50,171 nucleotides of DNA from Candidatus Omnitrophota bacterium (GCA_028711765.1 JAQTRP010000001.1:1-50171); one strand, 5' to 3'; shown: positions 27,030 through 36,766, numbered from the stretch's first letter. The notes: a model not told the origin generated them from the letters alone. A program made the numbers and translations.

Positions 27030-27137
27030 CAGTGGTCAATCGCCAGTTGTCAGTCATCAGTAAAAGATTAAGCGGTAAGAAGTAAGGAAAAGCGCAACCG
27101 GCTAACCGGCTCACTGGCTTACCGGCTAACCAATTAA
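27030..27137. repeat. Degenerate heptamer array followed by an octamer array at the 3' end of the giant ORF
   Basis: Plus strand 27030..27085: CAGTGGT CAATCGC CAGTTGT CAGTCAT CAGTAAA AGATTAA GCGGTAA GAAGTAA. Plus strand 27098..27137: CCGGCTAA CCGGCTCA CTGGCTTA CCGGCTAA CCAATTAA. The last unit contains the TAA stop (27136..27134). Confidence 0.85.
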
Positions 27138-36100: not shown

Positions 36101-36766
36101 TTTGTCTCGTGCCACATCGAGGGATTTTCTCATCCTGTTTATTTCATCAAGCAGTCCTGCCTTCGCCTCCTGAGCCCGGAGAAACGCCGTCCTATCATCT
36201 TCATAAAGCACCGTATCCTCGAGGGCGTAATAACCGGCGCCTGTCTCATCACACATCGCTGAGTACTCAGTGCCTGAGATTTCGCCCTTTGCCATCACGC
36301 GATCAAGGATTTTGCCCTTCAGTTCCTTATTCGGGAAGGCCTGAATCGGCAGAACATCAAATTTGCCGCTTCCGCCTTCTGTGGCAATGAGAGACGCGCC
36401 CTGCGCTTTGAAGTGGTCTATTATCGATACGATACTCTTCTGGGCTTCATAGAGACAGTGGGCGTCCTGTATATAAATGACGATGCCTTTCTTCGGATCG
36501 CCTTTAAAAACCTCGCCCGTAAAACCTAAATTTTGTGGAACGGTTATGGCGTAAGGGTCGGTCGCAAGCGTAAACGGCAGAGCCTCAAGATTCGGCTTTG
36601 CTACTTTATCATTAGGCGCCGACCAAACGACTGTCTGAAATGAGAAGACGGCTGCTACAGAAAGGGCAACGACGCGCAGCCAGTAGGGCGCATTCCCCGA
36701 ATGCGCCGCCGATCGCCGGGCTGTTTGGGAAACAGCCCCTACAAATATGTTTAACGTCTTCTTCAT
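27134..36766 (-). CDS. Giant (3210 aa) membrane-anchored multidomain protein; function unknown
   Basis: Uninterrupted ATG-initiated ORF with GGGGAG 9 nt upstream. Motifs seen by eye:
- hydrophobic anchor at aa 29-48;
- IYIQDAH (97-103) with LVTGGFH (488-494);
- kinase-like DVHPNN (1490-1495) and VVVDLG (1511-1516);
- RRQFF plus a hydrophobic stretch (1621-1641);
- HELVH (1830-1834);
- GNAT motif A KKDARDGGLGSFL (2748-2760);
- eight G-x-S-L-G linkers. Confidence 0.9.
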   Translation of the reverse strand: MKKTLNIFVGAVSQTARRSAAHSGNAPYWLRVVALSVAAVFSFQTVVWSAPNDKVAKPNLEALPFTLATDPYAITVPQNLGFTGEVFKGDPKKGIVIYIQDAHCLYEAQKSIVSIIDHFKAQGASLIATEGGSGKFDVLPIQAFPNKELKGKILDRVMAKGEISGTEYSAMCDETGAGYYALEDTVLYEDDRTAFLRAQEAKAGLLDEINRMRKSLDVARDKIYSGELKQFDAALSNYKEGKISLIDLICVIRDKSVEKKLFLARYPKLASLIQNVNAEEKADGSDSKRFRQFIDKAEAALSQFFAKDRTHKEKQRELARIKQSYQIGRASRFSYARELFEVLRKLGLEEGPQSEMKDVFDFPLDIREMQGTELFSEIKSVSKEIKSSMFKGEDDKTLDSLYERLSVLENIAKLELARDDFAEYEKSRGLYDIKVFNDFLSKFGEKTQFKLDLKWAERFYELAIKREEVIYNNFEDLVSSEKAKAAILVTGGFHKQGITRHFRENNISYIIVSPSFSNFDDSSYLRVMRGEYTLNADKLEAEFARRAPRSDYAHLHNSLVTWRVRIIDEAMKQGKIAEAGRYTRYVDDLFDIIDRELSRYTIAVPVLAAVGEKGHEEFIKAMMILFADDALLTSGDPAEYILGQLNDAAKQNLGMGIIEFLNKRAGEDEKFRKALEELIRTWPEVWGYLSGALSEKGITEDGFRNLVKAAIAQAPAGRTALLEGTTVVARERLGQLGLGEEDIKGLVDKVGQMKGVNLSAVSKVAYDKMSPADQEMYSNVEKVIRETLKDRGLRDEDLPLLTALVANLASAAPAGRSLGMKEAAEAVIKELEAKKARTRRAMTNKDMEAIKGASLGAKVEKAAEALKDAIAEKTRTGGPVSKNYLEEAISKAARRHGISKEDLEGHLDMEGLRGLPLPSATGKKLTAETDVSLAPSGVTSPASAPATLTHEPDEVLMNLITGSEREIDTLQFILDNNVGDISGKEKEYEDKIKELKAKVSALKSILRDKEKGEEDFMKVPLEENPIIFYAIDSDEGIRQEVERLVNQKYKSYVGAEGFSDFIEECILGAVGKTKADFEASTAYSVLLYYDSDEEGRPRFKIERSSREKDTVATVISTFVFDRFKAGFRWIEIGVEPKGAGVTATPTSPELPTKVTIIPSETTAVKIAVDKKPFATETAVAMFGSIKAMKIVPQDSGAIEEAAAKVFGSKENTPQLLPMGNFIGIQGMSTAQVMVYIFEQPDVVENYVMREAEAKGMEYSPALAGAVKKELLSQLQSSNIGATREDLIRITTALSGRSLGAVELPLSLEEDAWVNEAGDSYVGGRKEEIIDKVQDLFGDAFKFSRNLENVYGISGALPEHLEKVEMKYFISSTEKHVFKIRLRIKDQYRKIYEKALSPDGELKLLFAFKEGAIEDNEIASLQVLQWTKFIPRFGSPYRNSYVEEWIDGLTVKDAVKIQPLSPKERETVVSTYIQLGIQNSKAKGREEYFNDVHPNNIMFRGKQRDPENPDLVVVDLGLLRGSRQRSKDFLLSRLFLYYEDRNDLKRSRRQILDGIGKAFRSAFPDDSKLSEFLNDALENENTNLKQDQINLVRGWLQKTVPIGGEGASLGTAQAEAGKGFNRRQFFVSLGALGTAFVLGVGGQSVAQEQTGSIRIIRGPTGEYSVLVPKGTSRQIIAALEGARRKVKDPDLKKLLEDRIMDERLENGSAFSSERLPPSIDTRIYPIDFLMNITGYKVPNITREMVERSVGVSNNPEFRGMVRDAHNLLKKKFNLGDEADGASVLFVRGLDDNSFAMVPRGVKLVVVGLDAFEKEEGSRADKVYWIAQKIYHELVHVVNNIKSPGMPPLLDESLAFRATRQILEEYRNYLARTGKAGPDVLGNLKANVDGQKLVEKAFEIISSDRNRGEFCGLINIGTDDFKDIYYKNVQVLGEFIGIELINLKDGTWSKWIWVGPAGKMHKELIKKASVGEPITIAATPLPNIIMPDSILAKAAEAAGIPAAPAGASLGEEFEGNYSWEGDVDRDLAQGIIALAKLGGRWIEGPPPVVKNAAEEAVGPRLGKDAVRRYRYPELFTVPDKTTPGIKGPVRFIDPAKGYETIVVSESEWNLINSGDVEACARLAYMFMQSWVASYNAASGDNLINKREARLLGRVAEHIVLANALIGEVPMLSYDAKVSDPYSRMMARAIVLTGSLKNDISRQLSELINIRKEVKEQEEIVANQKRFAEGIEPKPGEAVRYSVQEVPSLKTEEAAEIHLEALLDTAEIETQKIKNQLSGLNDQIEYLQGEKPAAGNMGRNLVLQRDVLVERLLRLEDLADDAKAELTENGAYLTVADEPSGEDLADLLNAVQKPLRFDEAAYSEAVRRLRETEERAAKELQAKAVLEGRALGEKFVKDGFMEKLDFDLAELFARNLGALRRNGEFVSQIATLSPEQKSDLFEWFKEHEPSRAGMVGNVLQVIDGTVYKVDFSKVELLPDLREGGPEENLLRLGDREGILAHGVSLEKGGVVNLLSIMLDGRIKTGKSGVVDYSTLNKGTTQTPTSAGPFGPLYVVLRRNSEDGKLEDFFGKDIPASFHEAYLVPNEATRSFYEAAIKQAGVQGLITDSKEKELLAKLKTYKAFIDERNAAQITPGASLGFKTELQEAVRQGTKYAHEDKGAALNFRQFLDAAEKAGVGYAEAKKLLQGLAIEDSALESVNSFSREDPSNPELKFFDELFVYVDSQGETQGCCLIEIDRRNNTGNLKWLFVKKDARDGGLGSFLMGVFFGELKEYGMTKATISAYQDAFGFYQKYLGQIYGARPNVDYMLGAGEGPDGNITITIDLTKLTSSSKPGILSPAGRSLGMEKTAADVIAYYMLKEVLPGADIGIKEPAAADVVSVLANWESLKHDRVESLVRGWIRKKTLEYSDSRALLCRILEAGINEETVREIEGLVADYNAIAPEGQKIVPDKTGAFIQSAAKILTDASLIYASGTPEKMVRPAAWMEAYGMEPGDLSEALGLSVNLLDVPLDQLKPSGTPAFFFIDFNSITTGLDKVAQKQLIQALALKLGQDSRLVISGDSDDVSNIPVWLREVKSGFVLGKNLRIIRRVDVATKRDIAKWLEEAKGINNAVFVMKSLETEDAKKLTEIVARRAKDKLTLFFSFDMAKQTRASVNPFFALLLRVAFDAEAVLGKFPDIVKSIRVENNCYIVEVDLDRLEAIRDSAAAIARAA

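Follow-up and report, generated by a model that had tools for sequence, protein, structure and literature searches.

A giant multi-module Omnitrophota protein with a recurrent toxin-like junction motif and a TIKI-like N-terminal module as a possible precursor of separate products

The DNA investigated in this study, a window of 50,171 bp that comprises an entire contig of a metagenome-assembled genome (MAG) of a Candidatus Omnitrophota bacterium (GCA_028711765.1 JAQTRP010000001.1:1-50171), encodes on its minus strand an open reading frame (ORF) of 3,210 codons, termed giant1 (27134-36766), whose unrelated modules are separated by recurring copies of the short motif G-x-S-L-G. On the basis of its sequence we tentatively propose, with somewhat less than even confidence, that giant1 is a precursor that would be cut after the leucine of S-L↓G at each junction into separate products (the arrow marking the site of cleavage here and below). 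Such cutting would take place at small-Leu-small sites between modules, as carried out by the cysteine protease domain in MARTX and large clostridial toxins, and the most likely protease, and the simplest candidate, would be the conserved N-terminal domain of the protein (termed N-module, residues ~66-532 of giant1), since it is the sole domain common to all motif-bearing proteins. A cut at residue 1609 would place a signal of the twin-arginine translocation (Tat) type at a new N-terminus with an n-region of 10-12 residues, which would turn the module concerned (M5) into an ordinary Tat substrate. The products might act in the cytoplasm or periplasm of the producer or, upon delivery, in a host or prey cell. 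Circumstantial support for this hypothesis of a polyprotein is offered by the conservation of the motif in relatives, its likeness to mapped sites in toxins and the presence of the Tat signal just past one of the junctions.

The junction motif occurs in giant1 at the following positions, with one of the sites being degenerate:

34310-34324, minus strand, junction motif 1, GRSLG (residues 815-819)
34199-34213, minus strand, junction motif 2, GASLG (residues 852-856)
32870-32884, minus strand, junction motif 3, GRSLG (residues 1295-1299)
31940-31954, minus strand, junction motif 4, GASLG (residues 1605-1609), encoded by the 15-mer GGCGCCTCGCTGGGG
30743-30757, minus strand, junction motif 5, GASLG (residues 2004-2008), encoded by the same 15-mer
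29600-29614, minus strand, degenerate junction motif, GRALG (residues 2385-2389)
28859-28873, minus strand, junction motif 6, GASLG (residues 2632-2636), encoded by the same 15-mer
28241-28255, minus strand, junction motif 7, GRSLG (residues 2838-2842)

Seven copies of G-x-S-L-G compare with 0.11 expected from composition (ln P about -24.7), in agreement with a preliminary description of the DNA, made from the sequence alone, which had pointed to this recurrence at module boundaries. A single [GA]xSLG, located inside a transmembrane segment, is found in the 9,550 residues encoded by the remaining 28 genes of the window. We have also considered whether the motif is the nucleophile elbow (G-x-S-x-G) of a lipase or esterase, an element found once per alpha/beta-hydrolase domain between a beta-strand and a helix, and rejected this assignment in light of the seven copies, two of them 37 residues apart, the Pro/Ala-rich, coil-like flanks and the absence of a hydrolase match in Pfam. 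On the level of nucleotides, the codons TCG, CTG and GGG are each found at six of the seven sites, compared to a codon usage of 21%, 13% and 23%, and the identity of the 15-mer at motifs 4, 5 and 6 exceeds what is required by the peptide.

The same motif is found in a second large ORF of the window, termed giant2:

3-6554, minus strand, giant2 (MDD5084410.1, 2,185 residues), in a frame that is open from 6581, starts with ATG at 6554 and ends at the contig edge
4914-4928, minus strand, junction motif GRSLG of giant2, with serine encoded by AGT
2865-2879, minus strand, junction motif GHSLG of giant2, with serine encoded by AGT

The similarity between giant2 and giant1 is confined to the first ~510 residues (27% identity, E 5e-37; ~27-32% identity between the N-modules), and the cargo of giant2, for which there is no match in Pfam, is unrelated to that of giant1. 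In giant2 the motif is encoded as AGT-CTG/CTC-GGC, compared to TCG for the serine in giant1, and two relatives from other genomes (L001 and L002) vary at the codons for Leu and Gly. Since the codons differ between genes, it is the amino acids rather than the bases that are conserved. Among these relatives, whose cargo is equally unrelated to that of giant1, P0116 contains 7-8 copies, L081 seven, L002 and L079 two each and L001 one, with L079 originating from a single-cell genome. In the 31 x-S-L-G sites contained in seven motif-bearing proteins, the position -4 from the final Gly is G/A in 28 and position -3 is A/R in 24 cases, E/D is found at position +3 in 15, and the upstream flank is enriched in small residues (0.47 compared to a background of 0.31) with a doubled frequency of Pro. 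The consensus in giant1 and its closest relatives is [A/V]-x-G-[A/R]-S-L-G-x-x-[E/D], embedded in segments rich in Pro, Ala and Gly. In the sequences sampled, all ORFs with at least two copies of the motif carry the N-module, and ORFs of at least 500 residues that are devoid of it show four motif matches in 176,029 residues. In each carrier the first site is located 50-300 residues past the N-module. The carriers form two small groups near giant1 in a poorly resolved tree; the notion of the motif as a family-wide feature was rejected, as it is absent from most relatives. In a few other members of the family (P0113, P0052 and P0080), long unrelated stretches are separated by different short motifs that recur within the protein, namely RDTAMQMPxAG in six, RRSP[A/S]G in four and ARFG[D/E]E in four copies, which may take the place of G-x-S-L-G in their respective lineages.

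The junctions delimit the following parts of giant1:

34214-34309, minus strand, 32-residue basic peptide MKEAAEAVIKELEAKKARTRRAMTNKDMEAIK (residues 820-851), between junction motifs 1 and 2
32885-34198, minus strand, M3 (residues 857-1294), no recognisable family in Pfam or NCBIfam
31955-32869, minus strand, M4 (residues 1300-1604), putatively atypical-kinase-like, with an ABC1/UbiB-type core at residues 1441-1536 that includes DVHPNN and VVVDLG
30758-31939, minus strand, M5 (residues 1610-2003), Tat-type signal followed by a domain with HELVH (31265-31279), no family match
31832-31912, minus strand, internal Tat-type signal FNRRQFFVSLGALGTAFVLGVGGQSVA (residues 1619-1645) within M5, which begins 10 residues past junction motif 4
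29615-30742, minus strand, M6 (residues 2009-2384), no family match
28874-29599, minus strand, M7 (residues 2390-2631), no family match
28256-28858, minus strand, M8 (residues 2637-2837), GNAT acetyltransferase, with a Pfam match at residues 2710-2793 (28388-28639)
27137-28240, minus strand, M9 (residues 2843-3210), no family match

The first of these elements, the peptide MKEAAEAVIKELEAKKARTRRAMTNKDMEAIK, is helical-looking and would be freed if its flanking sites were cut. A pronounced feature of M5 is the segment at residues 1619-1645, which combines F-N-R-R-Q-F-F-V with the Gly/Ala/Leu-rich h-region SLGALGTAFVLGVGG and a terminal Q-S-V-A↓Q. The consensus of Tat signals is S/T-R-R-x-F-L-K, and by eye the segment reads as a textbook example, for which an HMM (hidden Markov model) scan of the short peptide gave no match. 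It is the only hydrophobic segment of giant1 besides its N-terminal helix and it is internal (around residue 1619 of 3,210), not at the N-terminus of the protein as in Tat substrates. An internal RR-hydrophobic segment had been noted in the preliminary description and is indeed found at residues 1621-1642, with RRQFF at 1621-1625 followed by a hydrophobic stretch reaching 1642.

Of the enzyme-like modules that had been suggested at the outset, the GNAT domain is supported by scores above the Pfam gathering threshold, with 23.2 bits for Acetyltransf_1 in a search with the whole protein and 28.5 bits with the module alone (cut-off 20.7) and 27.4 bits for Acetyltransf_7 (cut-off 27). Its acetyl-CoA binding motif A (R/Q-x-x-G-x-G/A) is found as RDGGLGS at residues 2752-2758, within the matched region. 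A kinase-like core in M4 is plausible though not secure. Both motifs on which this suggestion was based, a kinase-type catalytic loop NDVHPNN (1489-1495, with DVHPNN at 1490-1495) and VVVDLG (1511-1516), are present as sequence motifs within the stretch that is matched by ABC1 (PF03109, profile positions 146-232, E 9.9e-5), but the score of 22.0 bits falls just below the cut-off of 22.9, the match of the same residues to the NCBIfam UbiB model is weak (E 0.027) and no sequence in the PDB was matched by M4. Similarly, the HELVH proposed for M5 is present at residues 1830-1834, compared to 0.02 occurrences expected by composition, with E1850 following 16 residues downstream, but it stands as a bare motif, since the region shows no match in Pfam, NCBIfam or the PDB.

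No recognisable family was found for the five other modules of giant1. A word-index search with M4 and M5 gave no match, residues 857-2003 had no relative in a metagenome scan, no homologue of any cargo module was detected by phmmer and BLAST in 150 family members and 159 loci, and sequence and profile searches of the PDB with the whole of giant1, M4, M5 and M8 gave no usable match. The empty searches characterise the cargo of giant1 as orphan. Tandem repeats and, by self-BLAST, internal similarity are both absent from giant1, and no Ig, cadherin or RTX families were matched in the Pfam scan, which together sustain its description as a chain of unrelated modules that lacks the repeats of adhesins. 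The frame itself is free of stops from its ATG to the terminal stop codon and its product is identical to GenBank MDD5084432.1, annotated as 'hypothetical protein', in line with the single uninterrupted ORF initially described. All motifs that had been named were located at the residues given for them, including a hydrophobic helix at 29-48, IYIQDAH at 97-103 and LVTGGFH at 488-494.

The latter two motifs are part of the N-module, which together with the preceding helix forms the conserved N-terminal part of the protein:

36623-36682, minus strand, N-terminal hydrophobic helix (residues 29-48), preceded by K2, K3, R17 and R18 and followed by a conserved W-S-A-P
35171-36571, minus strand, N-module (residues ~66-532), with a TIKI-superfamily-like alpha/beta hydrolase core that is split by a helical insert
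35408-36214, minus strand, helical insert of ~270 residues (residues ~185-453), as assigned by DSSP in the predicted model

The helix is predicted to act as a signal anchor. In the motif-bearing clade (residues 48-51 of giant1, giant2, L001, L002 and L079), the helix leads directly into a conserved W-[S/A]-A-P, whose proline behind the small residues would be unfavourable to signal peptidase I, thus suggesting that the anchor remains uncleaved.

An AlphaFold model of residues 1-560 of giant1 (mean predicted local distance difference test (pLDDT) score 79.6) shows an alpha/beta core that is broken by the helical insert. Due to this insert, a Foldseek search with the model of the full N-module returned coiled-coil and helical-bundle noise only, a problem that was solved by a core-only model with the insert removed (pLDDT 87.5, predicted template modelling score 0.85). 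In a search of the PDB, this core matched HopBA1 (5t09) at rank 1 (E 3.3e-4, probability 1.00, template modelling (TM) score 0.48), followed at ranks 2-3 by RRSP (5w6l, probability 0.80 and 0.75) and then by 6a7h and 6a8j, with TM-scores that are moderate. HopBA1 and the RRSP of Vibrio are both listed as structures of the TIKI superfamily, whose fold consists of a parallel beta-sheet core with helices on its flanks, and RRSP acts as site-specific endopeptidase by virtue of a catalytic set of two His and two Glu and an essential Arg (PMC6254334). In the N-module, D101, H103, E130, R466 and H494 are invariant in alignments of 15 and 18 sequences, and their spacing (D101-x-H103 with 27 residues to E130, and R466 with 28 residues to H494) resembles that of RRSP (E3900-x-H3902 with 28 to E3930, and R4001 with 29 to H4030; PMC6254334), the first catalytic acid being Asp in the N-module and Glu in RRSP. 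The predicted fold and the active site place the N-module in the TIKI superfamily, outside any named family, and suggest that it is a hydrolase. At the level of the superfamily, the matches to HopBA1 and RRSP and the invariant catalytic set uphold the TraB/PrgY/Tiki-like motif pair of the preliminary description, but the N-module is not a member of the TraB/GumN family of Pfam: PF01963 (TraB_PrgY_gumN) was matched neither by the full N-module nor by core constructs, and PF04187 (ChaN) gave weak sub-threshold matches only, in two of ten constructs at the C-terminal motif (E 0.05 and 0.13). An hhalign comparison of the core with an alignment of the TraB family protein YbaP of E. coli was equally negative (probability 1.5%), and sequence and profile searches of the PDB with the N-module and its core gave no usable match.

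The gene of giant1 belongs to a large, Omnitrophota-specific family with multiple copies in several genomes. A profile built from residues 1-560 of giant1, giant2 and one stand-alone homologue was searched with HMMER against 1.84 billion cluster representatives, 9,274 of which match at E<=1e-3 and 5,829 at E<=1e-30. The N-module is located at residues ~10-540 in all of the best 150 of the 9,274 matches, which range in length from 500 to 7,727 residues, with unrelated cargo of 0 to more than 7,000 residues. Loci encoding an N-module, nearly all labelled Omnitrophota, were found in species-representative genomes (453) and metagenomes (361); several genomes carry more than one, and the architecture is also present in complete chromosomes. 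The N-module is matched by no model of Pfam or NCBIfam, and a literature search found no paper connecting Omnitrophota with the TIKI, TraB or ChaN families. The design of the family is that of a conserved N-terminal signal-anchor helix and a TIKI-like N-module ahead of a varying series of modules that are unrelated and for the most part resemble enzymes. PGM/PMM domains were found in the cargo of seven out of 14 relatives scanned, besides PGI, GPI, PFK and CofD, and PPDK/PEP-utilising domains in the cargo of other relatives. A split version of this architecture is found at one locus (L162:233-8328, JGI Ga0129287_10002241), where a stand-alone N-module gene of 523 residues is followed by TAATAA, an AAGGAG ribosome-binding site and a cargo gene of 2,153 residues with PPDK_N/PEP-utiliser domains, both genes encoding an N-terminal hydrophobic helix of their own. 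The adjacency of the two genes shows that N-module and cargo work together even if they are not fused, in keeping with the proposed precursor. The commonest neighbours of N-module genes are a conserved protein of ~780 residues without Pfam match, which precedes the N-module gene on the same strand at 28 of 145 loci (e.g. L003:93-1949), and an HD_5-domain protein, which precedes it at 19 loci (e.g. L003:2328-2720). Both are absent from the window, and no conserved neighbouring protease gene was found around N-module loci.

Several observations weigh against a processed precursor. Protease domains of the families CPD (C80), C39 and S8 were not found in giant1 by Pfam, and the candidate protease is placed in the TIKI superfamily by a TM-score no higher than 0.48 and by the spacing of its motifs, with negative HMM and profile-profile comparisons to TraB/GumN and the PDB. 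The majority of the 150 best representatives of the family have retained the catalytic residues but show no recurrent junction motif, so that, if the N-module were the processing protease, its sites would usually not be obvious. The N-terminus of giant1 looks like an export signal, but the kinase, GNAT and Tat signal imply a start in the cytoplasm. The encoding of three sites by an identical stretch of 15 nucleotides could reflect a history on the level of DNA instead of function, and cleavage itself is proposed from the resemblance of sequences.

In a different interpretation, which we regard as possible if somewhat doubtful, giant1 would be an uncleaved membrane-tethered scaffold of multiple enzymes, where the junction motif serves as conserved hinge or docking element, the N-module as enzyme or sensor and the RR segment as second membrane segment or as relic of a fused gene. 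Such a scaffold would conform with the description of long multi-enzyme proteins of Omnitrophota as membrane-anchored enzyme arrays (10.64898/2026.06.07.730766), with the PGM/PMM, PGI, PFK and PPDK-type housekeeping domains of relatives, with the lack of the recurrent motif in most family members and with the failure to detect a processing protease of a known family. It is less readily reconciled with the properties of the motif, as five positions kept invariant across paralogs and genomes despite changed codons would not be required in a plain flexible linker, and two copies bracketing a peptide of 32 residues would be odd for a hinge. Without a free N-terminus, it is also difficult to account for a complete, canonical Tat signal immediately after one of the motifs.

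The proposal of a cleaved precursor can be extended to a more far-reaching version, which we consider unlikely. In this version, the N-module would be a peptidase that processes its own chain by cutting behind the Leu of every G-[A/R]-S-L↓G, giant1 and its relatives would be true cellular polyproteins with a Tat signal that is unmasked by cleavage, and the same logic would apply, with other motifs (RDTAMQMP, RRSPAG, ARFG[D/E]E), across thousands of proteins, perhaps including giants of more than 30,000 residues.

Rather improbable, in our view, is cleavage of the motif in trans by a protease of the producer, a host or prey, with the N-module exerting another role as esterase or in cargo maturation or secretion. 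The N-modules of giant1 and giant2 share the same motif in spite of their low mutual identity, which would fit a factor acting at the level of the genome, and the TIKI superfamily is not restricted to proteases, as shown by erythromycin esterases and ChaN (PMC6254334). However, among the loci sampled, repeated copies of the motif are confined to proteins with an N-module in cis, and a protease gene as conserved neighbour is missing.

Very improbable as principal account is an origin of the junctions mainly at the level of DNA, where short conserved sequences would permit the in-frame swapping or insertion of cassettes, with the peptide motif as by-product. This mechanism, which is compatible with cleavage, would explain the mosaic character of the cargo, which is unique to each family member, and it draws on the shared 15-mer and the biased codons of the sites described above. 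It also draws on the G+C content at third codon positions (GC3), which in M3-M8 (0.42-0.48) is lower than in the N-terminal part of giant1 (0.56-0.59) and in flanking genes (0.50-0.62). The identity of the 15-mer and the low GC3 of the cargo hint that the junctions were points at which modules have been gained or swapped, but nucleotide similarity does not extend past the 15-mer, and the different codons in giant2, which is encoded in the same genome, and in other relatives have led us to reject a purely DNA-level repeat as main explanation. That giant1 is an assembly chimera or a fusion of pseudogenes instead of one real protein, as might be suspected from its source in a short-read MAG contig, the shift in GC3 between the N-terminal part and cargo and the absence of cargo homologues in the searches made, is hardly credible given 9.6 kb without stop in one frame, the recurrence of the architecture in independent assemblies that number in the thousands and include complete chromosomes, and a junction motif that is in frame at every boundary; the lower GC3 of M3-M8 instead suggests a different history of these modules, or a constraint on expression.

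The genes flanking giant1 are ordinary chromosomal ones, encoding ABC transporters, TrkAH, PEPCK, an OmpA-LysM protein, a B12-radical SAM enzyme, a cyclic di-AMP cyclase and PilZ proteins. Immediately upstream of giant1, and probably co-transcribed with it, is the following gene:

36763-37380, minus strand, HTH_17 and PilZ gene, whose stop overlaps the start of giant1 by 4 nucleotides

A second PilZ gene (22900-23358, minus strand) and a gene for a DisA-type cyclic di-AMP cyclase (23355-24167, minus strand) are located a few kb downstream, and PilZ genes have been noted to adjoin much larger giant genes of Omnitrophota (10.1101/2023.11.21.568195). No immunity genes or secretion-system markers adjoin giant1 and no tat genes were found on the 50-kb contig. 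Three further ORFs of the window, of 615 (41022-42869, plus strand), 336 (12043-13053, minus strand) and 150 residues (47713-48165, minus strand), have no match in Pfam, the first of them being the sole sizeable gene on the plus strand.

The general phenomenon of long multi-enzyme proteins in Omnitrophota is already known from two preprints (10.1101/2023.11.21.568195, 10.64898/2026.06.07.730766), both of which leave open whether they act as one chain or as many products. What appears to be new is the family of TIKI-like N-modules, a domain without Pfam or NCBIfam model despite its 9,274 cluster representatives, together with the toxin-like junction motif in a subclade and the Tat signal behind one of the junctions. 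In this respect, giant1 offers a candidate site (S-L↓G), a candidate protease (the N-module) and a built-in read-out in the form of a Tat signal that would be sensible only after cleavage. The family may also bear on housekeeping enzymes that seem 'missing' in Omnitrophota, such as PGI and those of other hexose-entry steps, part of which might reside as modules in such proteins.

Among known systems, the resemblance of the junctions is closest to the autoprocessing sites of MARTX and large clostridial toxins, which like giant1 combine several unrelated enzyme or effector modules in one giant chain. The toxin TcdB is cut at EGSL543↓GED and TcdA at GGSL542↓SED, and the sites of autoprocessing share the consensus small-Leu-small and are located where unstructured segments separate the effectors (PMC2900308). 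The site of TcdB nearly equals the G-A-S-L-G-E-E found in giant1, a likeness of sequence only, and with G-[A/R]-S-L-G-x-x-[E/D] in boundaries rich in Pro, Ala and Gly the junctions of giant1 correspond in sequence to the small-Leu-small pattern; MARTX itself carries a TIKI-fold module, RRSP. Unlike these toxins, giant1 shows no detected C80 domain, RTX or CROP repeats or translocation region. Peptidase C80 in particular was not matched in Pfam with the whole of giant1 at E<=1 or with single modules at E<=10, and the protein contains only 10 Cys residues. Its conserved domain is instead N-terminal and TIKI-like, activation by inositol hexakisphosphate (InsP6) would not be expected, and it is encoded in an Omnitrophota host by a family whose members carry domains of housekeeping sugar metabolism rather than toxins.

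The giant proteins of Omnitrophota described previously include Archaeovorin and dockerin types (10.1101/2023.11.21.568195) and long proteins termed 'multi-enzyme metabolic cluster' with GNAT and PGM/PMM domains (10.64898/2026.06.07.730766). Both preprints report proteins of at least 10,000-30,000 residues that are rich in transmembrane helices and contain SecA-like, C39 or S8 domains, and both speculate on cleavage by the C39/S8 domains without giving cleavage sites, the lack of known cleavage points having blocked the analysis in one of them. With these giants, giant1 shares the phylum, the combination of many enzyme families (GNAT, PGM/PMM, kinases) in one ORF, an N-terminal signal or transmembrane helix and PilZ neighbours. 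It differs by its size of 3,210 residues, which is below the cut-off of at least 10,000, by the presence of two hydrophobic segments, by a defined candidate site and by its N-terminal TIKI-like domain, which is mentioned in neither preprint.

The N-module shares with the TIKI hydrolases (Tiki1/2, TraB/PrgY, GumN, ChaN, erythromycin esterases, RRSP, HopBA1) an alpha/beta core with parallel sheet and an acid-x-His, Glu, Arg and His spaced as in RRSP. The cleavage of Wnt3a by Tiki, reportedly after ...W-S-L, is not part of the evidence used here. In contrast to the named families, it lacks a significant HMM or profile match, contains Asp in place of the first Glu and a ~270-residue helical bundle inserted into its core, and is always fused to, or encoded beside, a very long and variable cargo. 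Finally, viral polyproteins and polymorphic toxins with releasing peptidases resemble giant1 in the combination of a conserved part for processing or trafficking with variable cargo and in the short motif at each junction, whereas giant1 is encoded on a bacterial chromosome among housekeeping genes, without adjoining immunity genes and with a cleavage that is proposed from its sequence.

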